Shown here one piece after another: positions 1 through 36,673 of a DNA stretch of 64,000 nt; position 1 is the stretch's first letter, and the number at the start of each line of letters is the position of its first letter. Position numbers and translations under genes: made by a program. The notes under the pieces were generated by a model. That model was given only the letters and a program-made list of their open reading frames with translations, ran no database searches and had not been told where the DNA came from. Origin of the DNA: Corallococcus coralloides DSM 2259. GTDB lineage: Bacteria > Myxococcota > Myxococcia > Myxococcales > Myxococcaceae. The stretch lies in the NCBI RefSeq assembly GCF_000255295.1, contig NC_017030.1, positions 6,230,328 to 6,294,327 on the forward strand, written 5' to 3'.

Positions 1-1510
1 CACGGCGCTGGCGATCTGCTCGCGGATGGCCTTCACCGGCAGCTCCATGCCGGACATGAGCACCATCGTCTCCAGCCGGGCAATCGCGTCGCGCGGCGTG
101 TTCGCGTGCAGCGTGGTGAGCGAACCGTCGTGGCCGGTGTTCATGGCCTGGAGCATGTCCAGCGTCTCACCGGAGCGGCACTCGCCCACGACGATGCGGT
201 CCGGCCGCATGCGCAGGCAGTTCTTCACCAGCTCGCGGATGGTGATGGCGCCCTTGCCTTCCAGGTTGGGCGGGCGGCTCTCCAGCTGCACCCAGTGGTC
301 CTGCGGCAGCTGAAGCTCCGCCGCGTCCTCCACCGTGATGATGCGCTCACCCTCCGGGATGAACGAGCTGATGATGTTCAGCGTCGTCGTCTTCCCGGAG
401 CCCGTGCCGCCGGAGATGACGATGTTGCGCCGGGCCGTCACGCACATCTCCAGGAACTCGGCCATCTGCGCGGTGACGGTCTTGTACTTGATGAGGTCCT
501 GGATCTTCAGCGCGTCCTTCTTGAACTTGCGGATGGTGATGCAGGGGCCCTTGAGCGCCAGCGGCGGGATGATGGCGTTCACGCGGCTGCCGTCCTTGAG
601 GCGCGCGTCCACCAGCGGGCTGGATTCGTCGATGCGGCGGCCAATGGGCGCCACGATGCGCTCGATGACGCCGAGCACCGCCTGGTTGGAGGAGAACGTC
701 TTCTCCGACAGGGTCAGCTTGCCCTTGCGCTCGATGTAGATCTGGTTGGCGTGGTTCACCATGATCTCGCTGATCTCTTCCGACGCGAGGAACGCTTCCA
801 GGGGCCCCAGGCCCAGCGCCTCGTTGATGACGTCGGTGAGCAGCTCCTCCCGGTCCACGTCCCCGGGAAGCTCCTGGTCCGCCTCCATCTGGTCGATGAT
901 GTCCCGGATGGCCTTCTCGGTGCGGCGCCAGAGCTCCTCGTCCCCGAGCCGGTCCATGTCCATGCGGCGCAGGTCCAGGTACTCGATGAGCCGGTCGTGG
1001 ATCTCCTTCTGGAGGCGCGAGTAGCGCTCCAACCGGGGGTCCACCTTGCGCTTGTTGCGGGCCATGGCCGCGGCCATGGACGCGGGCATGCGGCTGGGAG
1101 CGGCCTGGGCGGGGGCGGGAGCCTCCTCCTCCTCGTAGGCCTCCTCCTCTTCGTAGGCCTCTTCCTCGTAGGCCTCCTCGCCCTGCTCCTCGTCGTAGCC
1201 TTCGTCGACGGGCTCTTCCTCCAGCGGCTCCACGTTGAGGATGTAGTCGCCGATGGAGACCTGGTCGGTGGGCTTGAGCACCATGGGACCGGCGATCTTC
1301 TTGCCGTTCACGAAGGTGCCGTTCGTGGACTTCATGTCCACGATGATGAAGCGACCGTCCTTCTCGACGATGCGGGAGTGGGTCTTGGAGACGTTCCCCT
1401 TGGCGAGCACGATGTCGTTGCCAGCAATCCGGCCGATCGTGATCTCGTTCTTGGGGTACTCCCGCTGCTCCGAACCGCCGCCCTTCTCCGTCAGCGTGAT
1501 GAGAAACATG
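1..1510 (-). CDS. cpaF: Tad/Flp-type secretion ATPase (CpaF/TadA family) with an N-terminal FHA domain. Partial: the C-terminus runs off the window start.
   Basis: Minus-strand translation from the ATG at 1510 gives MFLITLTEKGGGSEQREYPKNEITIGRIAGNDIVLAKGNVSKTHSRIVEKDGRFIIVDMKSTNGTFVNGKK, an FHA fold. This is followed by an acidic (EAYEE)n linker and then a CpaF core with Walker A VISGGTGSGKTTTLN and the TIREL...GECRSGE...HDGSLTTLHANTP motifs. This frame is not in the ORF track because it has no in-window stop. Confidence 0.85.
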
Positions 1511-1658
1511 GGGCGGGATGCTACCAAGCCCTCCTACGACCTCAAAGACTCCTGCGACGCTCGCCCGCCTGCTGCCCGGAAACGGACGGGCCGGCACCCT
1601 CCCCCTCTGGAGCAGGGATGGGGCCGGCCCGGATCCGACGTGACGGCGAGGAAGGCCG

Positions 1659-3107
1659 TCAGTCGAAGATGTTGAAGTTCACCTCGGAGCGGGCCTGCTT
1701 GTAGCGGGTCTTCACGTCCTCGATGATGCTGCGGACCTTGTCCGAGTCCGGGTTCACGATGCGCGGGGTGACGAAGATCACCAGCTCGCGCTTGGTGGAG
1801 TCGAACGCGCGGTTCTTGAACAGCTCGCCCACGATGGGGATGTGACCCAGGCCGGGCAGCTTCGCGACGGCCTTCTGCTCGTCGTGGCTGAACACGCCGG
1901 ACAGCACGATGGTCTCACCGTGGCGCACGGTGACGTTCGTCTTGACCTTGCGGGTGCGGAAGCCGGGGATGGCGGACGAACCACCGAAGGACACGGACAC
2001 GGAGGTGTCGATTTCAGAGGCCTCGGCCTCCACTTCCGTCTGGATGTTGCCGTTGCGGTCCGCGGTGGGGCGGATGTTCAGGATGACGCCGTAGGGCTTG
2101 TACTCCACCGTGAACTGCGTGTTGGTGATGAGGGGGATGGGCACCTCGCCGCCGGCGAGGAACTCCGCCTTCTCACCGCTGGCGCACACCAGCTTGGGCT
2201 GCGCCAGCAGGCGGCCGTAACCGTCGTTGGCCTGGAAGCCGATGCTCAGGTCGGAGCCGCCCGTCGCGCCCATCACCAGGTTGGAGATGGCGTCGCCGGA
2301 GGGGATGAGCGCCTTGTTCAGCGTCGCGGTGGCGGTCAGCGTGCCGGTGATGTCCGTGGGGTACTTGATGCCGTAGCGGTCGCGGCTGTTGCGGCGGATT
2401 TCGACGAACTGGACCTCGGAGAGGATCATCCGCTTGATGCCGACGACGAGCAGGTTCTCCACCTTCTCACCGATGGCCTTGGTGATGAGCTCCGCCTTCT
2501 GGAGGTCCTGCTGGCTCTCCACGGAGCCCTCCAGGAAGATGGTCGCGCCCACCACGTTGGCCTGCACGTTCTTCAGGCCCGCCTTCTGGAAGGCCGCGTT
2601 CAGGTTCTGGGCGACCAGCTTCTTGGCGTTGGGGGCGATCTTCACGAACGACTTCACGTTCGGGTAGAGGCTCACCACCTGCTCGATGCGGTCCGCGTCC
2701 TGCGTGGTGTAGGCCTGACCGTCCAGGTAGATGCGGTCGCCCACCATGCGCACGGACACGCCTTCGATTTCACCCAGGAGGCGCTTGATCTCCGAGATGA
2801 CCTCGTTGGGGTCCTGCTTGCGGACCGTCACCAGGTAGCTGATGCGCTGACCGGAGGACTTCCAGACGAGCAGTGTCGTCTTGCCTTCGGCGTTACCGGT
2901 GACGAGCAGCTGGCCGGTGCCGAGCGTCTTCACCTCGGCGATGGACGGATCACCCAGCGCGACGCGGCTGAGGCCGGGAATGGTGAGCACCTTCTGGGTA
3001 CCCACACCCAGGCTGACGGAGCTGCCCTCCTGGGCCTGGGCAGGGGCGCTGGCCACCACCGTGACGACGGCGCCGAGCGCCAGGGCTTGCGTGAAGCGAG
3101 TGAACAT
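1659..3107 (-). CDS. cpaC: Outer-membrane secretin, CpaC/RcpA (type II/III secretin) family.
   Basis: 482 aa with signal peptide MFTRFTQALALGAVVTVVASAPAQA. N-terminal BON-like region, then a C-terminal secretin domain (LLAQPKLVCASGEKAEFLAGGEVP...VTPRIV). It lies directly upstream of the ATPase. Confidence 0.85.
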   Translation of the reverse strand: MFTRFTQALALGAVVTVVASAPAQAQEGSSVSLGVGTQKVLTIPGLSRVALGDPSIAEVKTLGTGQLLVTGNAEGKTTLLVWKSSGQRISYLVTVRKQDPNEVISEIKRLLGEIEGVSVRMVGDRIYLDGQAYTTQDADRIEQVVSLYPNVKSFVKIAPNAKKLVAQNLNAAFQKAGLKNVQANVVGATIFLEGSVESQQDLQKAELITKAIGEKVENLLVVGIKRMILSEVQFVEIRRNSRDRYGIKYPTDITGTLTATATLNKALIPSGDAISNLVMGATGGSDLSIGFQANDGYGRLLAQPKLVCASGEKAEFLAGGEVPIPLITNTQFTVEYKPYGVILNIRPTADRNGNIQTEVEAEASEIDTSVSVSFGGSSAIPGFRTRKVKTNVTVRHGETIVLSGVFSHDEQKAVAKLPGLGHIPIVGELFKNRAFDSTKRELVIFVTPRIVNPDSDKVRSIIEDVKTRYKQARSEVNFNIFD

Positions 3108-3153
3108 CGTGTGAATCCCCTTCTTGCGTGCGCGCGCCCGGCCTGACGGCGCG

Positions 3154-3690
3154 CTATCCCAGATGTTGTTGCTGCCACCACATGGCCCAGAAAGTCCCGA
3201 GCGCGATGGAGACGCCGTAGGGGATGTGTCGTACGGGAGCGGGCGAGGTTTCCTCGCGCATCCATTTCATCCGCACCGCCCAGCGACGGGCCACCGCCGC
3301 CAGCGTGTCCCAGACGGCCCCCTGCCACAGCAGCGTGACGATGGCTTGCAGCGCGCCCGTGAGCGAGATGAAGGCCGCCGCGGCGAGCACCGTGGGAAAG
3401 CCCAGCACGCAGCCCACGCCCGCCATCAGCTTGACGTCACCCCACCCCATGCGCCCGCGCAGCGCACCCGGCACCAGCAGCAGCGCGAGTCCCGCGCCCG
3501 CCAGAAGCCCGCTCACCACCCCCGACTCCAGCCCGCCCACCCCTTCGGACACACCGCGCAGCCCGAGCCCCAGCACGATGAGCGGATAGGTCACGGCGTT
3601 CGGGATGAGCCGGCGCAGTACGTCGGTCACCACCGCAATCACCAGGGCCACTCCCAGAATCGTCCACAGCGCGAGCTGAACAGGTGTCAT
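3154..3690 (-). CDS. cpaA: Prepilin peptidase, A24 family (CpaA/TadV-like).
   Basis: 178 aa polytopic membrane protein carrying the GWGDVKLMAGVG active-site motif typical of A24 peptidases. Confidence 0.8.
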   Translation of the reverse strand: MTPVQLALWTILGVALVIAVVTDVLRRLIPNAVTYPLIVLGLGLRGVSEGVGGLESGVVSGLLAGAGLALLLVPGALRGRMGWGDVKLMAGVGCVLGFPTVLAAAAFISLTGALQAIVTLLWQGAVWDTLAAVARRWAVRMKWMREETSPAPVRHIPYGVSIALGTFWAMWWQQQHLG

Positions 3691-3802
3691 TCGGCACCTG
3701 CTCCCATGGGGAGCAGGCGACCCCCATCAAACAATGGAGGCCCTGAGGCCGTCAATTCCTGAACAAGGCCATCGCACCGTGGGGCCCCGCGTCATGCCGG
3801 CT

Positions 3803-4660
3803 TCAGTGGATGACGAGGCGGATCTTCTCGCTGCAGATGAAGTACTCGTCCCCGTCTTCGACCTTGCGGCGCTTGATGCGCTGCTTGTTGAACCAGGTCC
3901 CGTTCGAGGAGCCGAGGTCCTCGATGTAGAAGTCGCCGCCGTCGCGGGCGATGACGGCGTGCTCACGCGACACCTTGCCGGAGTTGATGACGAAGTCGCA
4001 GTGCTTGCCGCGGCCGATGACGTAGCGGTCCTTGACGATCTTCTCCTGCTCGCCGTTCTCCGTGACGAGGTAGAGCGAGGCGCCCTCCTCCTCGTCCGGC
4101 TCCTCCATCGGCTCTTCTTCCTCGGCCTCCTCGGGAGGCTCGTCCTGCATGTCGTCGAGCGGCGGCTCCTCCTGCTCCGGCAGGGGCTCCTCCTCGTCCT
4201 CGATCATGTCGTCCGCGGAGGGCGGGGGCGGCTCGTTCTTGCCCTTGATGAGCCGCTCCAGCTCCGCGGCCGTCTCCAGGACGCGCTCGGCGACCTCACG
4301 GCGCACCGGATCATTGTCCAGCCCATTGGAGGACGGGCGCTCCTCCGCGTTGCGCGCGGCGGGACGCGCGGCTGGCGCGGGGGCGAGGACGGGTGGACTG
4401 CCCTTGGCGGCGGCGGCCGGGGGTGGCGCGGCGGCGGGACGCGCCGCCGGGGAGGGCGCGGGTGACGGCACCGCCGCCACGGCGGGCTCGCCCTTCGTCT
4501 TCACGTCGATGAAGCCGTTGAGACGCGCGAACATGAACAGCGCCTGGTTGATGAGCGCGTCGCGATCCGACCCCATCTGCAGGGCCATCTCTTCGTACGT
4601 CTCCCACAGGTGCTCGGCGATGCCGACCTTGCGTGCGGGACGGGAGTTCTGATCGATCAT
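3803..4660 (-). CDS. RHH (CopG/Arc-like) plus FHA domain protein; putative phosphothreonine-responsive regulator.
   Basis: 285 aa. The N-terminus RKVGIAEHLWETYEEMALQMGSDRDALINQALFMFARL has a beta-alpha-alpha RHH pattern. It is followed by a Pro/Ala-rich and then acidic linker, and a C-terminal FHA domain (KDRYVIGRGKHCDFVINSGKVSREHAVIARDGGDFYIEDLGSSNGTWFN). Confidence 0.7.
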   Translation of the reverse strand: MIDQNSRPARKVGIAEHLWETYEEMALQMGSDRDALINQALFMFARLNGFIDVKTKGEPAVAAVPSPAPSPAARPAAAPPPAAAAKGSPPVLAPAPAARPAARNAEERPSSNGLDNDPVRREVAERVLETAAELERLIKGKNEPPPPSADDMIEDEEEPLPEQEEPPLDDMQDEPPEEAEEEEPMEEPDEEEGASLYLVTENGEQEKIVKDRYVIGRGKHCDFVINSGKVSREHAVIARDGGDFYIEDLGSSNGTWFNKQRIKRRKVEDGDEYFICSEKIRLVIH

Positions 4661-4723
4661 CGGTCTTGGCTCGGGAAATGCTGGACGTGGGGAACGATAG
4701 CAGAGCCGGCTGGGCGCGCCCAG

Positions 4724-6895
4724 TTACTGGAACGCCCGGAGATACGTGAGGTTGTCCACGTTGTCGGTGATGGACTCCAGGGCCACCTGAAGCACGCCGT
4801 CCGCGGAAGGATAGGCGACGTAGGCCAGGCTGGCGCCGTCCACGTCCGTGGCCACCACGGAAGCAGGCAGGGTGTAGACCGCCAGGTTGCTCGACTGACT
4901 GGTGTCCACGCCGAAGACGTAGCGGCGGAAGCGCGGCAGCAGCGTCACCACATAGCGGTCACCCGCCGCCAGCCGGCTCCCCGCGCCAATGGTGGGCGTC
5001 AGCGTGAGCGTCAACGGCGCGGGCACGTAGGTGGTGGGCGACTTGGGCGGCTCCAGGCCCAGGTCGAAGCCGTTCGGGTGGTAGTAGTAGTCCAGGAAGC
5101 TGGAGACCGTGTACGCCTCGTCGACGTTGAGCCGCTGCAGGTACGTGTCGCGGGTCTCCGCGCCCGAATAGAGCACGAAGGGCTTCACGTTCGGGCCGGC
5201 GCGCACGGAGAACAACGGGTACGACGCGCAGGGCTCCGCCGCGGCGGCGACCGCCGGGTCGGACAGGTCCGGGAAGAGCCGCGTGAGGCCATTGCCCTGG
5301 TCCTCCAGGCGCAGGATGGGGATGACCGCCGCGCAGGCGCCCGCGTTGTTCGCCAGGATGATGGAGTCGCCGGGAATCACGCCGCGGGACGCCACCAGGG
5401 GCGTCTCGATGAGGAGCGCAGGGTCCTCCTGGGTCAGGTCGCGAGAGAGTCCGACCAGTCCGGGCAGCACGCCCTGGAAGACGAAGCGGTACGTCCCGTT
5501 GGGCACCGTGCCATTGCAGAGGAACGCCGTGGCGTTGGTCGCATCCGTCACCTGGGGGCAGCCGGGCTGGGTCACGGTGATGCCCGGGAACTGATCCGCG
5601 CGCGCCACCTCGTTGTTGTCCCGCAGCTCCGCGACCACCGACGAGTTCAGCGGATTGCCTTCGGCGTCGCGGTCCAGGTTGAACGGGCGCCGCTCGTCCG
5701 CGCGGAACAGGGTGATCCGCCCGTCGGACGACGGCATGAGGCCCAGGAGCGGAATGGGGGTGAGGTAGGCCACGGCGTCCGCCCGGAGCTCGCGGACCTC
5801 CAGGCCCGTGCGCAGCGTGAGGCCCGTGGGCAGACCCGCGGACGGCCGCAGGGTCAGCATGGCCGCGCCGGTGACGTCGCGGGCGAGCACCGGCGTCGCG
5901 GACGGCGCCAGCGGATCCGGCCCGTTGTCGAGCGCGATGACGCCCTCACAGTCAGACGAGTTGCACGTCAGCTCATCCAGCACCACGAACACATAGCGGC
6001 CCGCGGGCTCGGTCACCGTGTCCGACACCTTGTAGCTGGCGTGCGTGGCCACGAGCCGCGCCGGGATGTCCACCAGGTCCGCGTAGTCGGGCACCGCGTA
6101 GGGCGCCGGCCGCGGCCTCTTGTAGGGGATCTCCACGGAGGCCCCGTCCGCGACGACGCGCACGAGCCGGCTGGTGCCGGACACGTTGCGGATGGCGACC
6201 ACCAGCGAGTCCACCACGTTGGCCCGCGCGGGCAGCGTGATCATGGACATCACCGTGTCCGCCGGCTTGAGGCAGAAGACCGGCAGCGCGGGAGGCAGCG
6301 CGGCCGCGTCGAAGCCCTCCGGGCCAGGCAGGTCCTGGCGCATCACCACCCCGCCGCCGAAGGGGCCGCAGAGCTGCTCGGCGGCCTCCGGGCGCGTCTG
6401 GAGCGCGTAGTACAGGACGCTCGGCGCGCCCTCCGCCACCGGGGCGTGCGCGGCGAAGGCGGTGATGAGCTGGCCGGTCGCCAGGCGCGTCACCTCGTTG
6501 AGGCGCGCGCGGTCCGCGGCCACCACGGAGATGCCGCGGCCGCCGGAGCTGCGCGCGTAGATGTACGGGCCGGACACGTCCTCGCCCTTGTCGTTGTAGC
6601 CCACGTCGCGGGTGAGCGAGTCGGGCCGCGCGATGACGGGGATGGCCAGGGGCTCCAGCGGGTTCGGCGCGGGGATGAACTCACGCGGCGTGCGCGTCAG
6701 GTCCAGCACGCGCAGCTCATCCCGGTCCTGAGAGGTGACGAAGACGAGCTGGTTGGAGAGCACCACGTCGTACGTGCCGGACAGACCGGCGGCGCCCGCG
6801 GTGGAGGTGGTGTCGGAGCAGGCGAGCGCGAGGCTCGCGCCGCTCAGCAACAGGGCAGCAAGAAAGCCGCGCTTCAAGGTCAGTTCTCCTGGCAC
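4724..6895 (-). CDS. Large lipoprotein of unknown function (beta-rich, propeller-like).
   Basis: 723 aa with lipobox LALAC after the signal peptide MPGELTLKRGFLAALLLSGASLALAC. Overlaps the upstream lipoprotein gene by 16 nt. Same strand and operon context as the Tad-like genes. Confidence 0.65.
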   Translation of the reverse strand: MPGELTLKRGFLAALLLSGASLALACSDTTSTAGAAGLSGTYDVVLSNQLVFVTSQDRDELRVLDLTRTPREFIPAPNPLEPLAIPVIARPDSLTRDVGYNDKGEDVSGPYIYARSSGGRGISVVAADRARLNEVTRLATGQLITAFAAHAPVAEGAPSVLYYALQTRPEAAEQLCGPFGGGVVMRQDLPGPEGFDAAALPPALPVFCLKPADTVMSMITLPARANVVDSLVVAIRNVSGTSRLVRVVADGASVEIPYKRPRPAPYAVPDYADLVDIPARLVATHASYKVSDTVTEPAGRYVFVVLDELTCNSSDCEGVIALDNGPDPLAPSATPVLARDVTGAAMLTLRPSAGLPTGLTLRTGLEVRELRADAVAYLTPIPLLGLMPSSDGRITLFRADERRPFNLDRDAEGNPLNSSVVAELRDNNEVARADQFPGITVTQPGCPQVTDATNATAFLCNGTVPNGTYRFVFQGVLPGLVGLSRDLTQEDPALLIETPLVASRGVIPGDSIILANNAGACAAVIPILRLEDQGNGLTRLFPDLSDPAVAAAAEPCASYPLFSVRAGPNVKPFVLYSGAETRDTYLQRLNVDEAYTVSSFLDYYYHPNGFDLGLEPPKSPTTYVPAPLTLTLTPTIGAGSRLAAGDRYVVTLLPRFRRYVFGVDTSQSSNLAVYTLPASVVATDVDGASLAYVAYPSADGVLQVALESITDNVDNLTYLRAFQ

Positions 6896-8409
6896 ACGCT
6901 GGTGCCCTGGTTCGGATCGCGCTGCTGCTGGATGCCCAGCTTCGCCACCAGCCGCGCGTCCTGGGGACGCGTCAGGTCGGGGATGTCCACGATGGCCACC
7001 TGGCTGTCACCGAAGTTGGTCACGAACAGCCGCGCCGCGTTCACCCCGGCGGGGTTGTCCACCGTCAGCCCGAAGGCCTGCGACGGGTTGCTGGTCTGGT
7101 TGAGGTCGTTGACGAGCGGCACCTGCGCCACGACCTGCCCGAGCGCCTCGTCGTAGAGGGACAACGCGCTGTCGCCGGTGCTCGTCACCGCGATGATGTG
7201 GGTGTCCGCGTTGGACGTGCCCGGCGTCCGCGAGATGATCTGCATGTCGCTCACGCCGTCGGGCATGGGCACCGCGGAGACCACGCGGAAGAAGGGCTGG
7301 GTGGCGGCGGTGCCCGGCACCGCGTCGTATTCGAAGTCGAGGGTGAGCAGCGTGTCCGGGCCGCGCGCCAGCATGTACAGCCGCTCGCGCACGAGGTTCG
7401 GACGCGCCGCCAGCTCCTCCGCCGTCACCGGCCGGGGCACCACGCGCGCCGCGCGAGCCTCGCGGATGCGGTACTCCGCCTGCAGCGAGGGCTCCAGGAT
7501 GGTGCCGGGGTCGTTCTTGTCCACCAGCCGCAGCACGAAGTTGCCGCCCACCGTGCCGTTGATGCCGGCCACGAAGTTGCGGCCCGTCACGTAGAGGTAG
7601 CCCGCGCCCACGGTCACCGAATCCGAGCCGCCGTAGAGGTAGCCCTCGGGAGACAGCGAGATGAAGCCCAGCGTGTCGCGCGTGGGGTTGTCCAGCTTCA
7701 CCGTGGCCAGGTAGTTCTCGAAGTTGCTGCTGGACCTGGCGGGCGAGTCCGCCGCCTCCGAGTGCGTCACGTACAGGTTGCCGCTCGCGTCATCCACCGT
7801 CACGCCGATGGGCGACGGAGCGCGGGGCAGGCCCGCGCGGCCCTCGTCACTGAGGGACGACGGGATGTCTTCGGTGAGCGACAGCGCGCCGTTGCGGCAG
7901 TCCATGCCGCCCTGCACGCAGGTGAGCACCGGAGCGCCGCTGGCCTCCAAGCTCACGTCCACCGCATTCAGGTTGTTGCCCTCCGCGCGCGAGGGCACGA
8001 ACAGGCGCGGCAGCCCCGTGGCGGGGTTCACCCACAGGGCCAGCTCACCCGCGAAGCTGCGGATCTGCACGAGCGATTCCTCCGCGGACGACAGGTCCTC
8101 GAAGGCGAGCGTGGAGACCGGGAGCACGCCGCCCAGGTAGGGCACCGTGACGGACTGCCCGTCCACCTGCGTGCTCAGCGTGTTCAGGTTCAGCGCGACC
8201 ACCGAACCGGAGTCGTAGCAGTTGTCGAAGTTGGCGTTCGCGACGAAGAGATAGCCGTTGCTCGCCGAGGGGCCACCCGCCGACGGAGGGCGCCAGAACG
8301 CCACCCCGCTGGGGTACACGAAGCGGGTGGACGGAGGCGGGTTCGGATCGGATTCAATCGAACACGCCCCGAGGAGCAGCAGCGCGGGGGTCAGGAAGTG
8401 GAGGCGCAT
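6880..8409 (-). CDS. YVTN/NHL-like beta-propeller repeat lipoprotein.
   Basis: Start chosen at MRLHFLTPALLLLGACSIE (lipobox LGAC) rather than the track's 8643 extension, which would overlap the glyS stop. Repeated motifs GYLFVANANFDN, GNLYVTH, GYLYVTGRN and RLFVTNFGDSQVAIVDI are typical propeller blades. Confidence 0.65.
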   Translation of the reverse strand: MRLHFLTPALLLLGACSIESDPNPPPSTRFVYPSGVAFWRPPSAGGPSASNGYLFVANANFDNCYDSGSVVALNLNTLSTQVDGQSVTVPYLGGVLPVSTLAFEDLSSAEESLVQIRSFAGELALWVNPATGLPRLFVPSRAEGNNLNAVDVSLEASGAPVLTCVQGGMDCRNGALSLTEDIPSSLSDEGRAGLPRAPSPIGVTVDDASGNLYVTHSEAADSPARSSSNFENYLATVKLDNPTRDTLGFISLSPEGYLYGGSDSVTVGAGYLYVTGRNFVAGINGTVGGNFVLRLVDKNDPGTILEPSLQAEYRIREARAARVVPRPVTAEELAARPNLVRERLYMLARGPDTLLTLDFEYDAVPGTAATQPFFRVVSAVPMPDGVSDMQIISRTPGTSNADTHIIAVTSTGDSALSLYDEALGQVVAQVPLVNDLNQTSNPSQAFGLTVDNPAGVNAARLFVTNFGDSQVAIVDIPDLTRPQDARLVAKLGIQQQRDPNQGTSVCQEN

Positions 8410-8578
8410 CAGAGGGGGGCGGAGTGTAGGAACGCGGCCCTGCGCCGGGCAACTGAATAGGGCTGCCACTATTCCCGGCAGCCCTCCCGCCGACATCCGC
8501 CCCCTTCCACAGGGCGTGCCCCGCTCCCCTGGAGGGGGAACGGGCATGCTCCGGCGGCGGTGAAGCGGCGACCGGGCC

Positions 8579-10676
8579 TCAGGCCGCGGCGGTTTCGGCC
8601 TGGATCTTGGAAAAGTCCGCCACCTGGTTGAACAGGGCGCCAATCTCCGTGAGGAACCGGATGCGGTTCTCCCGCAGGTCCTTGTCCTCGGCCATCACCA
8701 TCACCTTGTCGAAGAAGGTGTCCACGGCGGGCTTCAGGCCGGTGATCTCCTTGAGCGCGCCGGCGAAGTCGTCCGCGCGCACGTGCTCGCCCACCCTGGC
8801 GCGCGCCTGGGTGAAGGCGGTGTGGAGGTTCTTCTCCGGCTCGTCGGTGAAGCGCTGCGGGTTGGTCTGTCCGCCCGCCACGTCCTTGCCCTGCTTCTCC
8901 ACGATGTTGACCACGCGCTTGAACGCCGCCGCCAGCGGCTGGAAGTCCGAGTGGCCCACGAGCACGCTCAGGGCCTCCAGGCGCTTCTTCGCCGCGACCA
9001 GGTCGTCGAAGCCCACGGCCAGCACCGCCTCCACGACGTCCGTGCGGTGCTGCTCGACCCACAGCGCCTTGAGGCGGCCGCGGAAGAACTCCATCACCTG
9101 CTCGCGCGGGGCCGCTTCACCCGGCTTGCGCTTCACGTTGGCCAGCTTGGGGGCCAGGAGGCGCAGCGCTTCATCCACCGCCGCGGACAGGCTGAAGCGG
9201 TACCCGCGCCCCAGCACGATGCGGATGATGGAGAGGCATGCGCGGCGCAGCGCGAACGGATCCGCCGCGCCGGACGGCGCCTTGCCGATGGCGAAGATGC
9301 CGCACAGCGAGTCCAGCCGGTCCGCCAGGCCGATGAGCGCGCCCGCGTCCTGGGACGGCAGCGCGTCCTCGGCGCCGCGGGGCAGGTAGTGCTCGAAGAT
9401 GGCCAGCGCCACCGCGTCGGGCTCGCCGCCCGCTCTCGCGTACTCGCGGCCCATCACGCCCTGGAGCTCCGGGAACTCGCCCACCATGCCGGTGACGAGG
9501 TCCGCCTTGGACAGCGTGGCGGCGCGCTCCACCGTGGCCGCCTCCCCTGCCCTGCCCGTGGCCTGGGCCAGCCAGCCCGCCAGCGCGCGGAAGCGCTCCA
9601 CCTTCTCCAGGTACGTGCCCAGCTGGCCCTGCCACACCACGCGGCCCAGCTTCTCCACGCGGTCCGCCAGCGGCGTGCGGCGGTCCTCATCGAAGAAGAA
9701 GCGCCCGTCCGCGAGCCGCGCCGCCAGCACGCGCTGGTAGCCGCGCAGGGACAGCTGCTCGTCGCGCACCGGCGTGTTGGACACGGCGATGAAGCGCGGC
9801 AGCAGCTTCCCCTTGGCGTCCGTCAGCGAGAAGTAGCGCTGGTGGCTCTTCATCTCCTGCACCAGGACTTCCGGCGGCAGGTCCAGGTGGCGCTCCTCGA
9901 AGCTGCCCACCACGGGGCTCGGCAGCTCCACCAGGTTCGTCACCTGGTCCACCAGTCCCTCGTCCTCCAGCAGCTGCGCGCCCGCCGCCTTCGCCGCGGC
10001 GTTCACCTTGCGCAGCAGCTCCGCGCGGCGCTTCGCGATGTCCGCCACCACGTGCGCCTTCTCCAGCGCGGCCTCGTAGTCCGCGGGCGCCTTCAGGGTG
10101 ATGGCGCCCGGCGCGAGGAAGCGGTGGCCATAGGTCGTCCGGCCCGCCTTCACGTCGCCCAGCACCACCGGCAGCTCCGTGTCGCCCAGGAGCGCCACCA
10201 GCCACTGCACCGGGCGCGCGAAGGCCGTGTCCACGTCGCCCCAGCGCATGGACTTCTTGAAGCTGATGCCGTGCACCGCCGCGTGCAGCGCGTCCTGGAG
10301 GATGGCCTCCGCCGGACGGCCCTTCTCCTCCACGCGCGCGGAGACGTACTCGCCCTTGGCCGTGGTGGTGCGCCCGAGCGCGTCCACGGACAGCTTGAGG
10401 CTTTCGGCGAACTTCTCCGCCGCCTTGGTGGGCTTGCCCTGCGCGTCGAAGGCGGCCTTGGCGCTGGGGCCCAGCACCTCCTTCGTGATGTCCTCGCCCG
10501 CGTCCGCCACGTCGCGGACCTGGACGGCCAGCCGGCGCGGCGTGCCGAACGTGCGCACCTCGCCGTGCTTCAGGCGGGCGTCGGCCATGCGCTCGGTGAG
10601 CACGCGCTTCAGGTCCTCCAGCGCGGGGATGATGAACGACGCCGGGATCTCCTCGGCACCGACCTCCAGCAGAAGA

Positions 10677-10687
<11 letters not shown>
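8579..10687 (-). CDS. glyS: Glycyl-tRNA synthetase beta subunit.
   Basis: 702 aa with the conserved GlyS N-terminus [19 protein letters not shown]. Overlaps glyQ by 11 nt. Confidence 0.93.
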
Positions 10688-11669
<982 letters not shown>

Positions 11670-11758: not shown

Positions 11759-14020
11759 TCAGTTCGAGTAGGCCGGGAGGTCGGCCAGTCGAATCTGCAG
11801 CTTCGTCACTTCGCCGGGACGGATGGGAGCGGACAACAGCTTGCTCGTACCGCCGGGGTCCTGCGGGTCCACCACGCGCAAACGGTACGTCCCGATGGGC
11901 AGGGGGAACTTGATCAACGGGGACGTGCCCAGCTGCGTGGCGCCGTCGAACACGGCCGCGTTCTTCGGCACGGTGTAGAGCGTCAGCCACCCCAGGCCCG
12001 CCTTCGCCGCCCCCTTCGAGGTGGTCGTGTCGAGCACCTCCGGGTTCTCCACCTGCGTGACGGTGGTGACGGGCTCCGGGGGCTGCTCCGAGGGCTCGGG
12101 CTTCGCGGGGCGCGTTTCCACCTTCGCCACCGCGGGCGCGTCCGTCGTGGCGGCGGGCTTCGTCTTGCGTCCGCCCTTGCCGGCGGGGGCCTTCTTCGTG
12201 TCCGCGGCAGTCGCGACCACCACCGGTTCGGGCGCGGGCGGCTCCGCCACCGGCTCGGGCTCGGGGGTCGTCTTCTGGACGAAGCCCGGCGGAGGACCGG
12301 AGGGCTTCGGCGGCCACTGTCCGTTCGCGGCGGGGTCCACGGGCGGAGCCGGATCCAGCTCCGCCTTCACCCACTGCTTCGCGGAGTCGAACGCCGGCAT
12401 GAACACGCGGCGCACGGGTTCGAGCGTCGCCAGCCAGGCCACGCCGCCCAGGAGGAGGAGCAGGAACAACCGCATGCCCCAGCCGGAGCCCTCTCGGGCG
12501 GGCGGGGCCACGGGGGGCGCTTCAATGGACTCCTCTTCCTCCACCTGGCGTGAGGGCCGCGTCGTGCCGCGCACCGGACGGGTCTTGAAGCGCTGGGTCT
12601 GGAGCTCGCTGGGCGGATCCATCAGCCCATCGGACTCGGCCGCGTCGCGGGCCTCGGTGGGCTCGGGCCGCGCGCTGGGACGGGCCCGCGAGGGCCGCAC
12701 GGCGTCAGCGGGAGGACGGATGACCCGGGGAACGGGCGTCCCGTCCGGACCCGAGGGCCGCTGCGCTCGCGGCGTCACGGCGGGCGTGTTGAGGCGAGAG
12801 GCGCGGGCCTCCACGGCTTCATTGGCGGGACGCGGAGTCGCGCGGGGCGCGGGCGCCGAGGACTCGGCCGCGGCGCGACGGACGGGCGTGGGCTTGAAGG
12901 ACGCCGCGACGTCCGCGGGCGGGGCCTCCGCGTGCGGCGACTTCACCTGCGCGGTGGCCGCGGAGGCGGACTGATCACTGCCCTCCTCCACCTGGAGCGC
13001 CCCGGCGGCCTCGCTGACGCGGGCGTCCTCGGCGCGGCTGGCCAGCTCCAGGAGCGTGCGCGTCTTCTGGCGCTTCTCCTCGAAGAGCTCGCCCATGACG
13101 GCGGTCATCTGGTCTTCGTCGAACAGCTCGGAGCCCAGCGTGGCCTCGATGGCGCGCGCCATCTCCCGGCAGGTGCCGAAGCGCTGGGTGGTGTCGCGCG
13201 ACAGGGCCTTGAGCACCACGGCTTCCAGCGCCTCCGGCACGGCCGCGTTGAGCGAGCGCGGCGCGGGGATGTCCCCGTCCACGATCTGCATCATCACGGC
13301 GGCTTCGCCGGGGGCGTTGAACAGGCGCTGTCCGGCCAGCAGCTCGTGGAGCATCACGCCCGTGGAGAACTGGTCGCTGCGGCCATCCAGGTCCTTGTTG
13401 CGCACCTGCTCTGGGGACATGTACCCGCTGGTCCCCTTCACGGTGCCCACCTGCGTGCGGCCCAGCTTGCCGCGCGCCTTGGCGATGCCGAAATCGATCA
13501 CCTTCACGACGCCGTCGTAGGTGATCATCACGTTCTTCGGGGACACGTCGCGGTGCACCACCGCCACGGGGCGGCCCGACGGATCCATGAAGTGGTGGGC
13601 GTAGTGCAGACCCAGGCACGTGTCGCGAATCACGCGCGCGCTGAAGCCCAGCGGCAGCGCGTACTTGCGCCGCTCCGCCATCTTCACCACCTGCTCGAGG
13701 TTCTGGCCGGGCAGGAACTCCATGGCGAGGTACAGCTCGCCGTCCTCCTCCCCCAGGTCGAACACCTGTCCGATGTTCGCGTGCGAGAAGGCCGCGGTGA
13801 TGCGCGCCTCGTCGAGGAACATCTTGACGAACTGGTCGTCCTTCTTGATGTCGGGGAGGATCTGCTTCACCGCCACGAACTTGCGGAAGCCACCGGGGCC
13901 GGAGGTGTACGCGAGGAACAGCTCCGCCATCCCGCCCATCGAGAGTCGGGTGAGGATCTCGTACTTTCCAATGCGCCGCCCCCGGTCGGGATCGTCTCCG
14001 GCGACTCCCTGCGTGCTCAT
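11759..14020 (-). CDS. Membrane Ser/Thr protein kinase with a C-terminal PEGA-like domain.
   Basis: 753 aa. Hanks kinase motifs (VAVK, HRDVSPKNV, DFGIAK, SGYMSPE) are followed by a Pro/Ala-rich linker, a TM segment LFLLLLLGGVAWLA, and a C-terminal beta domain (YTVPKNAAVFDG...GTYRLRVV). Confidence 0.85.
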   Translation of the reverse strand: MSTQGVAGDDPDRGRRIGKYEILTRLSMGGMAELFLAYTSGPGGFRKFVAVKQILPDIKKDDQFVKMFLDEARITAAFSHANIGQVFDLGEEDGELYLAMEFLPGQNLEQVVKMAERRKYALPLGFSARVIRDTCLGLHYAHHFMDPSGRPVAVVHRDVSPKNVMITYDGVVKVIDFGIAKARGKLGRTQVGTVKGTSGYMSPEQVRNKDLDGRSDQFSTGVMLHELLAGQRLFNAPGEAAVMMQIVDGDIPAPRSLNAAVPEALEAVVLKALSRDTTQRFGTCREMARAIEATLGSELFDEDQMTAVMGELFEEKRQKTRTLLELASRAEDARVSEAAGALQVEEGSDQSASAATAQVKSPHAEAPPADVAASFKPTPVRRAAAESSAPAPRATPRPANEAVEARASRLNTPAVTPRAQRPSGPDGTPVPRVIRPPADAVRPSRARPSARPEPTEARDAAESDGLMDPPSELQTQRFKTRPVRGTTRPSRQVEEEESIEAPPVAPPAREGSGWGMRLFLLLLLGGVAWLATLEPVRRVFMPAFDSAKQWVKAELDPAPPVDPAANGQWPPKPSGPPPGFVQKTTPEPEPVAEPPAPEPVVVATAADTKKAPAGKGGRKTKPAATTDAPAVAKVETRPAKPEPSEQPPEPVTTVTQVENPEVLDTTTSKGAAKAGLGWLTLYTVPKNAAVFDGATQLGTSPLIKFPLPIGTYRLRVVDPQDPGGTSKLLSAPIRPGEVTKLQIRLADLPAYSN

Positions 14021-14110: not shown

Positions 14111-14899
14111 TTAGGCGCCGAACCGCCGTCGCCGCACGTCGAGCATCCAGCCCTCAAGCGCGGCCACGGCCGGCGGTTGTGGCTCCAGAGGCAACACGGA
14201 GGCCGCGTCCGCCGCGTCGAGCACCGAGAAGGCGCGCGTCACCTCCTGCCGCCACTGCTCGCTGAGTTCTTCGGTCAGCTCGATGCGCTCACCGCTCCGC
14301 TTGCGCTCCACCAGCGCACGGGCTTCGCCAAAGCCATACGGCTCCAGCAGGACGGTGACGTCCGTCTCCATCTCGCCCGTGCGCAGCGCATGCGTTCCGG
14401 TGAGCGTGGTGCGCAGCACGTACAGCAACTTCTTCACGGAGCGGAATCCGCTCTTCTCCCACTCGCGCAACTGCCCCTGCGCGAAGCCGCGGTAGTGCCG
14501 GTGGATGCGCCGCGACAGCACGGCCCGCACCAGCGGCCGCAGCGCCTCCAGCTCCGGCAGGGCCCGCACGGTGATGGCCCCCAGCACCCGCTCGATGTAG
14601 TTGCCGTTGCCCTGGAGGATGCCCAGCAGCACGGGCTGCAGCTCATTGGACGAGTAGTCCACCTCCACGCCCTCCAGCACCTCCAGCCGTTCCGCCGGCA
14701 CGTGCCGGGGCTGGAGGCCGAGGAGCGCGGCGGTGGGCGCGATGTGGATGGCCTTGAGGTCCAGGTCGCTGTCATGCGACGGGAAGCCGTACGCATGCGC
14801 GCCGGACAGCGAGATGACCAGGTGCTCGCGCTGGAGGGACTCCTCGTCCAGCACGCGGTCCACCATGCGCTCCTGATGCTCCGTCACCCTGCCCTTCAT
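14111..14899 (-). CDS. Predicted nucleotidyltransferase (Pol-beta superfamily, PF10127-like), short paralogue.
   Basis: 262 aa with the minimal NTase motif SLSGAHAYGFPSHDSDLDLKAIH (GS-x9-DxD). The C-terminal helical region is shared with the upstream paralogue. A 4-nt overlap with the upstream gene indicates translational coupling. Confidence 0.65.
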   Translation of the reverse strand: MKGRVTEHQERMVDRVLDEESLQREHLVISLSGAHAYGFPSHDSDLDLKAIHIAPTAALLGLQPRHVPAERLEVLEGVEVDYSSNELQPVLLGILQGNGNYIERVLGAITVRALPELEALRPLVRAVLSRRIHRHYRGFAQGQLREWEKSGFRSVKKLLYVLRTTLTGTHALRTGEMETDVTVLLEPYGFGEARALVERKRSGERIELTEELSEQWRQEVTRAFSVLDAADAASVLPLEPQPPAVAALEGWMLDVRRRRFGA

Positions 14900-16185
14900 T
14901 CCGTCCCTCCTTCCAGCGCCGGAGCCTCCGGCGCGTCACGGCCCAGCGGGCCGGGCGTCTTCAAGACCCAGCGCCGCGCCACCTCGTCACCCACGCGACG
15001 CAGCAGCCGGTCCGCGCGGGCGTAATCCGGATGCTCCGGCAACCGGCTCTCGCGGTGCGCGGCCTCCAACGCCGGAGCCATCGCCTCGGCGTCGCGCAGC
15101 ACGTCCTCCAGTGGCACCTGGCCACCCTTGATGTCGAGCAGCCGCGCCTTCAACGCCCCCGTCGCCTCGAAGCCAGGCACCCCGTCGCGCAGCCAGCCCG
15201 TGGCCAGCGCCACCAGCCGCAGCAGGTTGTACGCGTTCTTCGGCCGCAGCTCCCGAGCGGACGGAGGACGCTGACCGCCGCCGCGCGCATACGCCGTGAG
15301 CGCCGCGAAGTCGTTCGACGCGAGCAGCCCCTGGTCCCAGAGCGAGCGGTAGAGCTGCTTGACGTACGTCTTCGCCGCGAGCACCGCGTCCTCGGCCGTG
15401 GGCGCGGCGCGGGGCGACACTGCGGCCAGGCGGCGGGCGACCTCGTCCAGGTCCGGCGTGGGCTCCTCGCACAACCACGCGAGGAGCAGGTCGCGGTGCT
15501 CCGCCAGCCGCTGGCTGCGGGTGAGCTTGTCGAGCTGGCTCATGGCGTAGCGCCCGAAGCTGCCGAAGATGGCCTTGGAGACGAACGCCTCGCGCGCCTC
15601 CAGCACCCACGTGCCCAGCTCGTCCACCGCCGTCGCGCCGGGGACGAAGAGGGTCTCCAGCGTGTTCGGATCCGCGCGCAGCGCCTGCTCCACCGTCTTG
15701 CGGACCTCCCAGTACGTGGTGCTGCCATCCGCGCTCACCAGGTCCTGCGGCGGCTGCCCCAGGCCCAGCGTCCACGGAAGCGGCAGCGCGAACACACCGC
15801 GCACGTCCACGTCGGAGCGCTCATCCGCGAGCCCCCACGCATGACTGCCCACGCGCGTCTCCAGCACCACGCACGGCCGCAGCGCGCCCCAGGCCGCCTC
15901 GCGCCGCTGAGCGAACTGCACCTGTCCCGCGCGCCGGGGCACCAGCTCGTCGCGCGCGAACCACACCTCGCCCACGCCGACGATCTGCACGTCGAAGCCA
16001 CCGTCATGCGCGCGCACCACGCGGCCCACCACGCCCTGGGGGATGCGGCGTCCCCCGGACGCCACGCGTTCCACGCGGGTGGTGACCTCGGTGCCATGCG
16101 GCAGGGGCACCGACAGCCGGTCGATCTGCTCCAGCCCCCGGACGCGCGCCGGAGCGGAGGAAGAAGTCTCGCGGGTGTCACTCAT
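14896..16185 (-). CDS. Predicted nucleotidyltransferase (Pol-beta superfamily, PF10127-like), long paralogue with an extra N-terminal beta domain.
   Basis: Start chosen at MSDTRETSS (ATG at 16185, RBS GGAGGG). NTase motif VGSHAWGLADERSDVDVRGVF. The C-terminal region KNAYNLLRLVALATGWLRDG parallels the paralogue's KKLLYVLRTTLTGTHALRTG. Confidence 0.65.
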   Translation of the reverse strand: MSDTRETSSSAPARVRGLEQIDRLSVPLPHGTEVTTRVERVASGGRRIPQGVVGRVVRAHDGGFDVQIVGVGEVWFARDELVPRRAGQVQFAQRREAAWGALRPCVVLETRVGSHAWGLADERSDVDVRGVFALPLPWTLGLGQPPQDLVSADGSTTYWEVRKTVEQALRADPNTLETLFVPGATAVDELGTWVLEAREAFVSKAIFGSFGRYAMSQLDKLTRSQRLAEHRDLLLAWLCEEPTPDLDEVARRLAAVSPRAAPTAEDAVLAAKTYVKQLYRSLWDQGLLASNDFAALTAYARGGGQRPPSARELRPKNAYNLLRLVALATGWLRDGVPGFEATGALKARLLDIKGGQVPLEDVLRDAEAMAPALEAAHRESRLPEHPDYARADRLLRRVGDEVARRWVLKTPGPLGRDAPEAPALEGGTE

Positions 16186-16263
16186 CGGTCCCTCCTGGAT
16201 GGGATGGTGGGCCACGCAGGACGCAGCGAAGCACACGAGCCTGACCCGGCACGGGGCTTCCCG

Positions 16264-22428: not shown

Positions 22429-26640
<4,212 letters not shown>

Positions 26641-26772
26641 GTTGCCTCCGAAAACTTATGAGCGCTCAGGGCGCCAAACGTTTCGGGCCCCCGCCCTGCG
26701 CCCGGCCAGCCGCTCCCTCCACGAGGAAGCAGCCAGCCGGTCAGGCGGGCGCACCGGCTTCTTTGAAAAGGC

Positions 26773-30998
<4,226 letters not shown>

Positions 30999-31134
30999 TT
31001 CGGTCTCCGGGGACGGCTGCTCGGGCGGGGCAAACTTCAGTAACGCGCGGCGGCGCCGGGAAATTTGGCAAATGTCAAATGGGCAAAGCCGGCGCCCCAG
31101 CAAAGGGAGCGCCGGCCTGCTCATCCGATCAGGC

Positions 31135-31169
31135 GGCTACCCGGGATTTCCCGGAAGAACAGGGTAGCC
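31135..31169 (-). terminator. rplL-rpoB intergenic hairpin (attenuator-like).
   Basis: Inverted repeat GGCTACCC...GGGTAGCC with an inner palindrome CCGGGATTTCCCGG, located between the rplL stop and the rpoB start. Confidence 0.4.
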
Positions 31170-31180
31170 CCTGTACAGAA

Positions 31181-31552
31181 CTACTTGATCTCGACGGTGG
31201 CGCCAGCCGCGGTGAGCTGGTCCTTGATCTTCTTGGCGTCGTCCTTGTTGACGCCTTCCTTGACCGTCTTGGGCGCGCCCTCGACCAGGTCCTTGGCCTC
31301 CTTCAGGCCCAGGCCGGTGATCGCGCGGATCTCCTTGATGACGTTGATCTTGTTGGCGCCGGCGTTCGCCAGCACCACGTTGAACTCCGTCTTCTCCTCA
31401 ACAGGAGCGGCGGCGGCGGCGGGGCCCGCAGAGGCAACGGCCACGGCGGCGGCGGAAACGCCCCACTTGTTCTCCAGCAGCTTCACGAGCTCGCCCGCCT
31501 CGAGGACGGTGAGCTTCGAGAGTTCTTCAGCAATCGCGTTCAAATCGGCCAT
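31181..31552 (-). CDS. rplL: Ribosomal protein L7/L12.
   Basis: 123 aa; [27 protein letters not shown]... Confidence 0.97.
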
Positions 31553-31641
31553 GGAACTGTTCCTTCTGGTTGACTAACGGCCGGCGACCCATTTGGGCGG
31601 CTCGGCCGAAGAGGTTGCGGTAGAAAAACTTCTCGGGACGA

Positions 31642-32163
31642 TTACTGCCCCTGCGCCTTGTCCGCGTGCGCCTGGATGACGCGCGCGAGCTGCGACCCGG
31701 GGGCCGCGATGGTCCGGACCAGCTTGCCTGCAGGCTGGTTGAGCATGCCGAGCAACATCCCGCGCAGCTCATTGAGGCCCGGCAGCTTCGCCAGTGCCTT
31801 CACGCCGTTGGCGTCGACCTTGTTACCGGCGACGACGGCGCTACGGACCTTGATGGTCTCCATGTCCTTGATGAAATCCATCAGGATCTTCGCAGGAGCC
31901 ACCTCGTCGTCGTAGCTGATGCACAGCGCCACGGGACCGGTGAAGTCATCCGAGATCGCGGAGACGGTCGTACCCTGAGCGGCACGGCGCGCCAGCGTGT
32001 TCTTGATGACCTTGTACTCGACCTTGCCCTCGCGGAACTTGCGACGCAGCTTGGTGACGGTCTCGACGTTCACCTTGGAGGACTCCACGAGCACCGCGGT
32101 CTTGGTCCGCGCAAACTTCTCGTGAAGCTCCTTGATCATCTCTTCCTTCTCGCTCTTCAGCAC
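31642..32163 (-). CDS. rplJ: Ribosomal protein L10.
   Basis: 173 aa; conserved L10. Confidence 0.95.
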   Translation of the reverse strand: MLKSEKEEMIKELHEKFARTKTAVLVESSKVNVETVTKLRRKFREGKVEYKVIKNTLARRAAQGTTVSAISDDFTGPVALCISYDDEVAPAKILMDFIKDMETIKVRSAVVAGNKVDANGVKALAKLPGLNELRGMLLGMLNQPAGKLVRTIAAPGSQLARVIQAHADKAQGQ

Positions 32164-32421
32164 CTTGACTCACCTCCTTCATGGCCCGACTTGACGGTCG
32201 GGCGTGATGCCTGGGCCAAAGTGGCAGAGCGAGAGAGGAGCCTCCGAGAGGCACCACACCGCACCTCCAGTCTCGGCAGGGCTGACCTTGCGGTCGTTTG
32301 AACCAGGAGCGGATGGACGGCCCGACCGGTTGCCCGGTTCCCAACGGACGCGTCTTCTCCCATCCAGGTCCCTGCTGTCATGAACCAGGTCGGAACGCCG
32401 CGTCTCTCGACATGGCGCCCC
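32164..32421 (-). promoter_or_regulatory. rplJ (L10) leader region.
   Basis: About 260 nt of untranslated leader upstream of rplJ and downstream of the rplA terminator. This is the position of the L10/L12 autoregulatory leader in other bacteria. Assigned by position only. Confidence 0.4.
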
Positions 32422-32453
32422 AATTGCAAAAGCCGGGGGCCTATACCCCCGGC
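32422..32453 (-). terminator. Intrinsic terminator downstream of rplA.
   Basis: On the minus strand, an 8-bp GC stem GCCGGGGG/CCCCCGGC with a 6-nt loop is followed by TTTTGCAATT. Confidence 0.5.
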
Positions 32454-32559
32454 TTTCGCAAAGATCCAGCACTTTCTAACGAACCGACGTTCGCGGGCGA
32501 CGGGACTGACGCTCCCCGTCAGGGAGCGCACCCTTCCCTGCCCGTCCTGGCAGCCGCGA

Positions 32560-33273: not shown

Positions 33274-33301
33274 GGCAGGAATCCTTGAGAGGTAGGGCGG
33301 G

Positions 33302-33748: not shown

Positions 33749-33782
33749 CGGCGGACTGCTGCCTTTCGAGAGGGTGGTTCCG

Positions 33783-36597: not shown

Positions 36598-36673
<76 letters not shown>

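Follow-up and report, generated by a model that had tools for sequence, protein, structure and literature searches.

In Myxococcus xanthus, the contact-dependent killing of prey requires Kil, a Tad-like apparatus whose genes are split over clusters I and II and of which KilC, KilF, KilG, KilH and KilB are essential components (Seef 2021, PMC8460266). The same study showed that KilF, KilG and KilD cluster at the sites of prey contact. It noted the FHA domain fused to KilF, the over-representation of FHA proteins and the short secretin without an N0 domain, as well as the lack of canonical TadD and RcpB, with MXAN_3102-3104 being counted in cluster 1. Drawing a parallel with the type VI secretion system (T6SS) of Pseudomonas, it suggested that a phosphorylation cascade may be involved, and it reported Kil-like systems in other Myxococcales, Bradymonadales and Bdellovibrionales. 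The major pilin KilP and four minor-pilin Tips have been described since, with KilA maturing Tips 2-4 (Herrou 2025, PMC12075869). Here we analyse a stretch of 64,000 nucleotides from Corallococcus coralloides DSM 2259 (NC_017030.1, positions 6,230,328 to 6,294,327), designated the window, of which positions 1-8409 very probably represent the C. coralloides orthologue of M. xanthus kil cluster I (MXAN_3102-3107).

Positions 1-8409 hold six genuine minus-strand genes separated by gaps of -16 to 169 bp, an arrangement already recognized in the initial annotation of the window, which was made from the sequence alone. They are assigned to Kil cluster I because identity, gene order and both flanks agree (Table 1). 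The closest relative of the window ATPase in M. xanthus DK1622 (P0011) maps to CP000113.1 3631054-3652841, that is, within the MXAN_3102-3108 region, where the order runs glyQ, glyS, two proteins lacking any Pfam domain, an FHA protein, a Peptidase_A24 protein, a secretin, an FHA-T2SSE protein, an FHA-FHA-TPR protein (KilD) and polA. All the window proteins from glyQ to the ATPase, including the six of interest, are collinear with this locus. The published descriptions are in line with such an arrangement: Supplementary file 1 of Seef 2021 (PMC8460266) lists MXAN_3102 as a cytochrome cd1-like propeller, MXAN_3103 as a YWTD propeller, MXAN_3104 as an FHA protein, MXAN_3105 as KilA, MXAN_3106 as KilC, MXAN_3107 as KilF (FHA and P-loop) and MXAN_3108 as KilD, and the series of RS tags that the DiscOperon preprint (2026) gives between glyQ and polA is arranged likewise. 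Whole-database searches were performed for KilF, for the second lipoprotein (LP2) and for the FHA protein, with M. xanthus proteins of the expected length appearing among the orthologues, while the peptidase, the secretin and the first lipoprotein (LP1) were compared with the DK1622 kil locus only.

A public contig of 11,145 bp (L086) is 100% identical to positions 133-11277 of the window and likewise stops inside kilF; the far flank can be read in other Corallococcus genomes. In L007, L008, L015 and L018 the sequence past the point that corresponds to position 1 continues into the rest of kilF, then kilD and polA, with L008 and L015 being 94-95% identical in nucleotides to the window over the 12 kb compared and L007 and L018 93-96% identical over about half of it. 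The gene order of Kil cluster 1 that had been proposed in the initial annotation (about MXAN_3102-3108) matches gene for gene, as judged from DK1622 synteny and from the Seef 2021 table. The cluster had been rightly named but ascribed to Myxococcus, when this copy belongs to Corallococcus coralloides. Likewise, it had been anticipated that the gene set would continue past position 1; it does so in the sister strains, but into kilD and polA instead of tadB/tadC. What is reported here is the identification of an already known system in a sister genus.

Table 1. Features of the kil locus and of its surroundings in the window. Identity is that of the encoded protein to its M. xanthus DK1622 counterpart.
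Feature	Coordinates	Strand	Identity	Details
kilF orthologue, FHA-ATPase	1..1509	-	88%	partial, 503 aa, cut by window start
promoter-like block before kilF	1516..1547	-		TTTGAGG ... GCTTGGTAGCAT, 8-9 nt before ATG; flanking intergenic DNA not conserved
19-bp GC-rich hairpin	1586..1632	-		directly 3' of kilC stop
kilC orthologue, secretin	1659..3107	-	87%	482 aa, signal peptide
kilA orthologue, A24 prepilin peptidase	3154..3690	-	73%	178 aa
promoter-like block before kilA	3724..3757	-		TTGACG-N18-TTTGAT, conserved across genera
MXAN_3104 orthologue, FHA protein	3803..4660	-	70%	285 aa
conserved block before FHA gene	4691..4705	-		CTCTGCTATCGT, possible extended -10 element
LP2, MXAN_3103 orthologue, lipoprotein	4724..6895	-	42%	7-bladed beta-propeller core and extra beta domains
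LP1, MXAN_3102 orthologue, lipoprotein	6880..8409	-	47%	509 aa, YVTN-type beta-propeller repeats
promoter-like block before LP1	8412..8476	-		GGAAT ... GTTGCCC-N17-TACACT ... ATG
glyS	8579-10687	-	86%	conserved upstream neighbour
glyQ	10677-11669	-	92%	conserved upstream neighbour
Ser/Thr protein kinase gene	11759-14020	-		753 aa, directly upstream of glyQ
two adjacent RlaP-family genes	14111-16236	-		between pfkB and kinase gene
housekeeping block	22429-36921	-		rpoC, rpoB, rplJ, rplA, rplK, nusG, secE, tuf and tRNA genes

The protein families of the machine components support this identification. KilF presents an N-terminal FHA domain (Pfam, residues 23-87, 2.4e-17), followed by an acidic linker and a CpaF/TadA-type ATPase (T2SSE, residues 232-487, 2e-63), with its C-terminal 80-90 residues or so lying beyond the window start, as homologues have 585-595 aa. 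The linker is long, of low complexity and strongly acidic (residues 95-130, EEAYEEEAYEEEEAYEEEE). A mechanically called open reading frame (ORF) at 347-1597 is an out-of-frame artefact, the true ATPase frame being the one listed in Table 1. An assignment to PilT or GspE had been set out as a possible objection, which a comparison of the ATPase with the alternative families does not bear out. Among solved structures, CpaF (9e24) was the best match with 371 bits over residues 123-502, against 139 for FlaI, 106 for VirB11 and 47 for PilT. The NCBIfam models gave 312 bits for the TadA family versus 59 for PilT, 56 for GspE and 54 for PilB, the TadA-family score being below the model cut-off of 373 for a query that misses the C-terminal 80-90 residues. 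By these comparisons the ATPase is of the CpaF type, and neither PilT nor GspE. Its catalytic motifs are intact (Walker A GGTGSGKT, Asp box and Walker B) and its FHA domain keeps the phosphothreonine-binding residues (G26-R27, S41..H44 and N63-G64).

The nearest database ATPase, from Corallococcus sp. AB030, is 98% identical to KilF, and identity ranges from 78 to 98% among the 120 best database relatives. When the best 150 representatives of 50%-identity clusters were examined, 65 carried an N-terminal FHA domain on a CpaF-like ATPase. The fusion that had been described as unusual for a Tad ATPase is present, but it is not rare among these relatives. In many of the other representatives, which have 700-730 aa, the N-terminus is extended differently, by some 280-300 residues.

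Regarding KilC, the only Pfam matches are T2SS-T3SS_pil_N, BON and Secretin (5e-42), which corresponds to the short type of secretin, without the N0 domain as judged by Pfam. The protein is equal in length to its DK1622 counterpart, and its best matches in the PDB are 8jvb and the Tad secretin RcpA (8odn). The sole family match of KilA is Peptidase_A24 (Pfam, 6.6e-16); both motif aspartates are present (D23 in TDVLRRLIPN and D85 in GWGDVKL), and the protein belongs to the short CpaA/TadV/FppA type. The Pfam matches of these two proteins and of KilF (FHA and T2SSE) agree with the A24 peptidase, Tad-type secretin and FHA-fused CpaF ATPase first read from the sequence.

The remaining parts of a Tad machine are not encoded nearby. 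No TadB/C, CpaB, CpaE/TadZ or Flp-like gene was found in the window when about 45 ORFs of at least 80 aa were compared with Pfam, a few ORFs without a Pfam match and three short ORFs at 53248-54222 staying unassigned, and a six-frame search for the Flp motif gave 0 matches. Similarly, kilB, kilG, kilH, kilP and the minor pilin genes are all missing from the window. The early observation that Flp pilin, TadB/TadC and TadZ/CpaE are lacking in this stretch is borne out, and so is the remark that the pilins lie at a distant locus, given that in M. xanthus the platform and pilin parts are found at other loci (Seef 2021), a trait already documented for Kil.

In M. xanthus, the Kil machine assembles at predator-prey contact and polymerises a KilP pilus tipped with minor-pilin complexes. 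In this mechanism KilF acts as the motor powering pilus polymerisation at the prey contact sites, KilC forms the outer-membrane channel and KilA processes a subset of the prepilins, with the inner-membrane platform, CpaB and the pilins encoded elsewhere in the genome. The same predation role is inferred by orthology for C. coralloides. Phosphothreonine would be bound by the FHA domains of both KilF and the 285-aa protein, which would link a Ser/Thr kinase signal to the machine or to its expression. Since both domains keep the residues that bind phosphothreonine, it is plausible that Ser/Thr phosphorylation serves for recruitment or gating. These intact residues give substance to the earlier proposal that the two FHA modules point to such control; the control itself is deduced from them, and the idea was already published by Seef 2021.

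A further question is whether the six genes form one unit. They had been taken as a single operon, a view that the intergenic alignments across genera (13 sequences from different genera in the case of the kilF and LP1 upstream regions) do not support. Promoter-like blocks are conserved before LP1, the FHA gene, kilA and kilF, the block preceding LP1 being the sole conserved part of the glyS-to-LP1 intergenic region, and a conserved hairpin follows kilC. For the latter, RNAalifold computes -38 kcal/mol, with 9 pairs presenting compensatory changes; 93.9% of cells are paired, compared with 41-56% in slid controls, and 0 of 500 shuffles attain the observed values. Only a weak U-tract is found after it. 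The hairpin is probably a terminator, an attenuator or an mRNA-stability element placed between kilC and kilF. Since the kilF block lies so close to the ATG, the corresponding mRNA might be leaderless or have a very short leader. Three terminator-like sites were also detected in the sequence, which is no more than expected by chance. Because of the conserved blocks and of the hairpin, the six genes are probably distributed over several transcription units and do not constitute one operon. The DiscOperon preprint predicts the units glyQS-LP-LP, FHA alone and kilA-to-polA, with which the conserved blocks agree only in part.

The way these genes are associated in other genomes also points to more than one unit. 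The FHA gene was searched in one genome per species and the neighbours of the resulting 79 loci were mapped by tblastn, 50 of them being long enough for their neighbourhood to be judged. The order glyQ-glyS-LP1-LP2-FHA-kilA-kilC-kilF-kilD-polA, or a close variant, was found in 38 loci, among them those of Corallococcus, Myxococcus, Pyxidicoccus, Citreicoccus, Hyalangium, Archangium, Cystobacter and Vitiosangium. The variants are L057, without a peptidase match, L066, without a peptidase or an LP2 match, and L069, a frameshifted metagenome-assembled genome (MAG) in which the FHA gene stands with kilA, kilC, kilF, kilD (kilACFD) and polA, devoid of glyQS and of both lipoprotein genes upstream. 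The L069 FHA protein at first seemed to lack its N-terminal part; this is an artefact of the frameshift, as that part lies in another frame.

Ten other loci, from uncultured 'Myxococcaceae', have the FHA gene directly followed by polA, with no kil genes between them. Contigs of this type that extend far enough upstream read glyQ-glyS-LP1-LP2-FHA-polA, and a metagenome contig shows the same order (the kil-less loci, from uncultured Myxococcaceae MAGs, are L006, L059-L065, L068, L070 and L077). In the last two of the 50 loci, L067 (6154-10459) and L083 (6381-11131), both from distant Myxococcota MAGs, the FHA gene, including its N-terminal part and central helix, is grouped with a gene for an LP1-like lipoprotein and with a second ORF in unrelated neighbourhoods, with hemD/methylase or truB upstream and an LptD-like or Ig-like protein downstream. 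Neither neighbourhood contains glyQS, kil or polA.

In a neighbour-joining tree of glyS (a single gene, rooted at the midpoint), the kil-less genomes form one clade that is sister to kil-containing genera, and two kil-containing lineages branch deeper than this clade. Because of these deeper branches, the simplest reading would be that kilACFD was lost or relocated in the kil-less clade. A feature of the FHA protein follows the same division. The helix formed by residues 117-143 is missing in 10 of the 10 kil-less loci examined (nine of the ten tallied above and the metagenome contig L006) and is present in 10 of 10 kil-containing loci examined, as well as in L057 and L069, being only weakly matched in the kil-containing L066. 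The link is imperfect, since the helix also occurs in L067, L083 and L058, whose available sequence shows no kil gene; for L058 this sequence stops about 1 kb beyond the FHA gene.

The 285-aa FHA protein itself, which is 100% identical to protein P0229 of C. coralloides DSM 2259, can be divided in an N-terminal part (residues 1-53), a disordered Pro/Ala linker, the helix, an acidic linker and the FHA domain (residues 213-272; Pfam 1.1e-19), with three of these parts being conserved in the alignment, namely the near-invariant N-terminus, the invariant helix and the FHA domain. The acidic linker (residues 150-195, EDEEEPLPEQEEPP...EEAEEEEPMEEPDEEE) is long, strongly acidic, of low complexity and disordered according to AlphaFold, which predicts helices at 14-29, 33-47 and 118-140 besides the FHA sandwich. 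The FHA domain, whose best solved match is EmbR, keeps the phosphothreonine-binding residues G216-R217, S231..H234 and N253-G254. This protein had been described as combining a ribbon-helix-helix (RHH) with an FHA domain, and while the FHA part is firmly supported, the RHH is only suggestive. Pfam gave no RHH match even at E<=10, the only hit being a sub-threshold DUF4167, and in the AlphaFold monomer the N-terminus consists of two helices at pLDDT 55-68, with no strand. When an N-terminal profile was compared with the whole PDB, only CopG (2cpg and 1b01) emerged, weakly (E=0.17) but in register through helix A, the GSD turn and helix B. A comparison by hhalign with a CopG sequence gave P=6e-6. 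The protein may be a DNA-binding regulator.

As to the two lipoproteins, the initial description of two large propeller-like proteins holds, with no match in Pfam for either of them. The N-terminus of LP1 reads MRLHFLTPALLLLGAC and then S, with Cys16 invariant in the orthologue alignment, and a profile of 16 orthologues matches the YVTN propeller 1l0q (3.8e-9, 4 stretches) and, weakly, YncE and the hydrazine synthase beta subunit. LP2 has 723 aa if translation starts with the GTG at 6895 and 717 aa if it starts with the TTG at 6877, which lies 2 nt past the LP1 stop; the shorter form is that of database gene calls for the identical sequence. A paralogous relationship between LP1 and LP2 was considered and discarded as undetectable (hhalign probability 2%). 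LP2 is 68-98% identical inside Corallococcus and about 40% identical between genera. Between Corallococcus and Myxococcus the lipoproteins diverge far faster than the secretin, the ATPase and glyS (42-47% versus 86-88% identity), a behaviour that would be typical of exposed or interaction-driven proteins. They are inferred to be envelope proteins not strictly tied to Kil.

Taken together, these observations indicate that the genes of LP1, LP2 and the FHA protein are conserved as an evolutionary unit in its own right, with a putative functional link to Kil, and that the six genes probably comprise at least two evolutionary modules. A more specific proposal, put forward tentatively and rather unlikely to hold as a whole, is that the three proteins constitute an autonomous envelope-to-DNA signalling module that became coupled to Kil through the central helix in Myxococcaceae. 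In such a scheme an RHH transcription factor that reads phosphothreonine would receive signals from two beta-propeller lipoproteins in the envelope, and the clade that lost kilACFD would also have lost the central helix, with both lipoproteins, the FHA domain and the RHH part being retained. Should this hold, the arm of Kil that senses prey contact or regulates the machine, missing so far, would be encoded by MXAN_3102-3104.

Among the rival explanations, the one that best survives is that all six genes make up one functional Kil module, in which the lipoproteins would be outer-membrane parts (pilotin-like or prey-sensing) and the putative RHH-FHA protein a dedicated regulator, co-expressed with kilACF. 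This is possible, albeit doubtful. Such a module would account for the co-orientation and short gaps, for an LP1-LP2-FHA-kilA-kilC-kilF-kilD order kept in 38 of 50 loci, including the two deepest glyS branches (L057 and L066), and for the fact that the central helix is absent in exactly the clade without kilACFD. The persistence of the FHA gene beside kilACFD in L069, without the lipoproteins, points in the same direction, as does the inclusion of these genes in cluster 1 by Seef 2021 (PMC8460266) together with the absence of canonical TadD/RcpB. However, ten species genomes keep glyQS-LP1-LP2-FHA-polA without kilACFD and two others have the trio in unrelated neighbourhoods. In addition, conserved promoter-like blocks are found before LP1, the FHA gene, kilA and kilF, the DiscOperon preprint treats the FHA gene as monocistronic, and the Seef 2021 supplements list no MXAN_3102-3104 deletion. 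Neither recent papers nor a full-text search provided functional data on MXAN_3102-3104.

It is very unlikely that the locus encodes an ordinary adhesive Tad/Flp pilus, serving attachment or biofilm formation and with no predation role in Corallococcus. The core proteins do fall in the Tad families CpaF, CpaC/RcpA and CpaA, and Tad pili are generally adhesins (Seef 2021, PMC8460266). Against this stand the 87-88% identity of the secretin and the ATPase, and the full synteny, with genes whose deletion abolishes M. xanthus predation, as well as the Kil-specific features of the locus (the FHA-ATPase fusion, the neighbouring FHA proteins and the lack of platform and pilin genes at this site). Corallococcus is, moreover, a predatory myxobacterium. 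Finally, the fallback offered in the initial annotation, according to which this would be an uncharacterised Tad variant under FHA control and separate from Kil, has nothing beyond the domain architecture in its favour and is refuted, to the point of being extremely improbable, by the orthology to MXAN_3102-3107 in identity, gene order and both flanks.

The identification of the locus as Kil cluster I, and the function ascribed to it, have nevertheless to be balanced against several points. The evidence from this genome is the window, which ends within kilF and contains neither kilD nor cluster II nor the pilin genes. Seef 2021 and Herrou 2025 give no Corallococcus experiment and never mention the genus. 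With only 42-47% identity to their M. xanthus counterparts, the lipoproteins may not have conserved whatever function they have. Phosphorylation of Kil proteins is hypothetical. As for the transcription units, a sigma-70 consensus scan found no promoters, the promoter function of the blocks being deduced from their conservation alone.

The Ser/Thr protein kinase encoded directly upstream of glyQ deserves mention as a candidate, though unproven, partner of the FHA proteins. It is kept in most genomes in which kilACFD adjoins the FHA gene, but not in Cystobacter fuscus, Archangium minus and some other Archangium, where recO-pfkB-glyQ follow directly, and it is also missing in the kil-less clade. 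A role as fixed partner of the locus was rejected for this reason, the linkage not being universal, and the kinase was not used as evidence. Between pfkB and the kinase gene, the Corallococcus loci carry a pair of genes of the RlaP family (RNA-repair, DNA polymerase beta-like nucleotidyltransferases); in other genera pfkB abuts the kinase gene, and the pair looks like a genus-specific insertion. The window presents a G+C content of 63-74% (2-kb windows) and, among its other genes, contains recO, pfkB, rpoBC, ribosomal protein genes, nusG, secE, tuf, tRNA genes and glycine-cleavage genes. The rpoC-to-tuf stretch is an ordinary housekeeping block, in which secE and tuf are separated by one tRNA gene and four tRNA genes form a cluster. 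Over the whole window Rfam found six tRNAs and nothing else.

In summary, the main finding adds little to what had been published for M. xanthus, where Kil itself, its split clusters, the FHA-ATPase fusion and the phospho-signalling idea were all described. The comparison does sharpen two questions, namely how the assembly of Kil is set off by contact with prey and which role the uncharacterised cluster-I genes play, and it provides a modest new lead in the modular behaviour of MXAN_3102-3104, with a helix that tracks adjacent kil genes in Myxococcaceae-type lineages.

Set beside the systems known so far, the locus is closest to M. xanthus Kil cluster I, with which it shares genes, order and flanks (glyQS upstream and, in sister strains, kilD and polA downstream), including the FHA-CpaF ATPase, the pil_N-BON-secretin, the short A24 peptidase, the FHA protein and two lipoproteins. 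It differs in the sequence of these lipoproteins and in the two RlaP-family genes, and in being a copy known from sequence alone. In common with the Cpa system of Caulobacter crescentus and canonical Tad (type IVc) it has a CpaF ATPase, an RcpA-type secretin, as in P. aeruginosa, and a short TadV/CpaA (FppA) peptidase. Unlike in canonical Tad, the ATPase carries a fused FHA domain, the locus has FHA proteins on its flanks and no TadB/C, CpaB, CpaE/TadZ or Flp gene is found at this site; furthermore, in M. xanthus Kil is distributed among several loci and serves contact-dependent killing, not adhesion. The presence of FHA domains with intact phosphothreonine-binding residues beside a secretion ATPase recalls the Fha1/PpkA pathway of threonine phosphorylation in the P. 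aeruginosa T6SS, except that here the kinase-substrate relation is putative and the nearby Ser/Thr kinase is not universally linked. Lastly, the 285-aa protein resembles EmbR of M. tuberculosis, an FHA-containing transcription factor and the best solved match to its FHA domain, although its DNA-binding part would be the suggested RHH instead of a winged helix.

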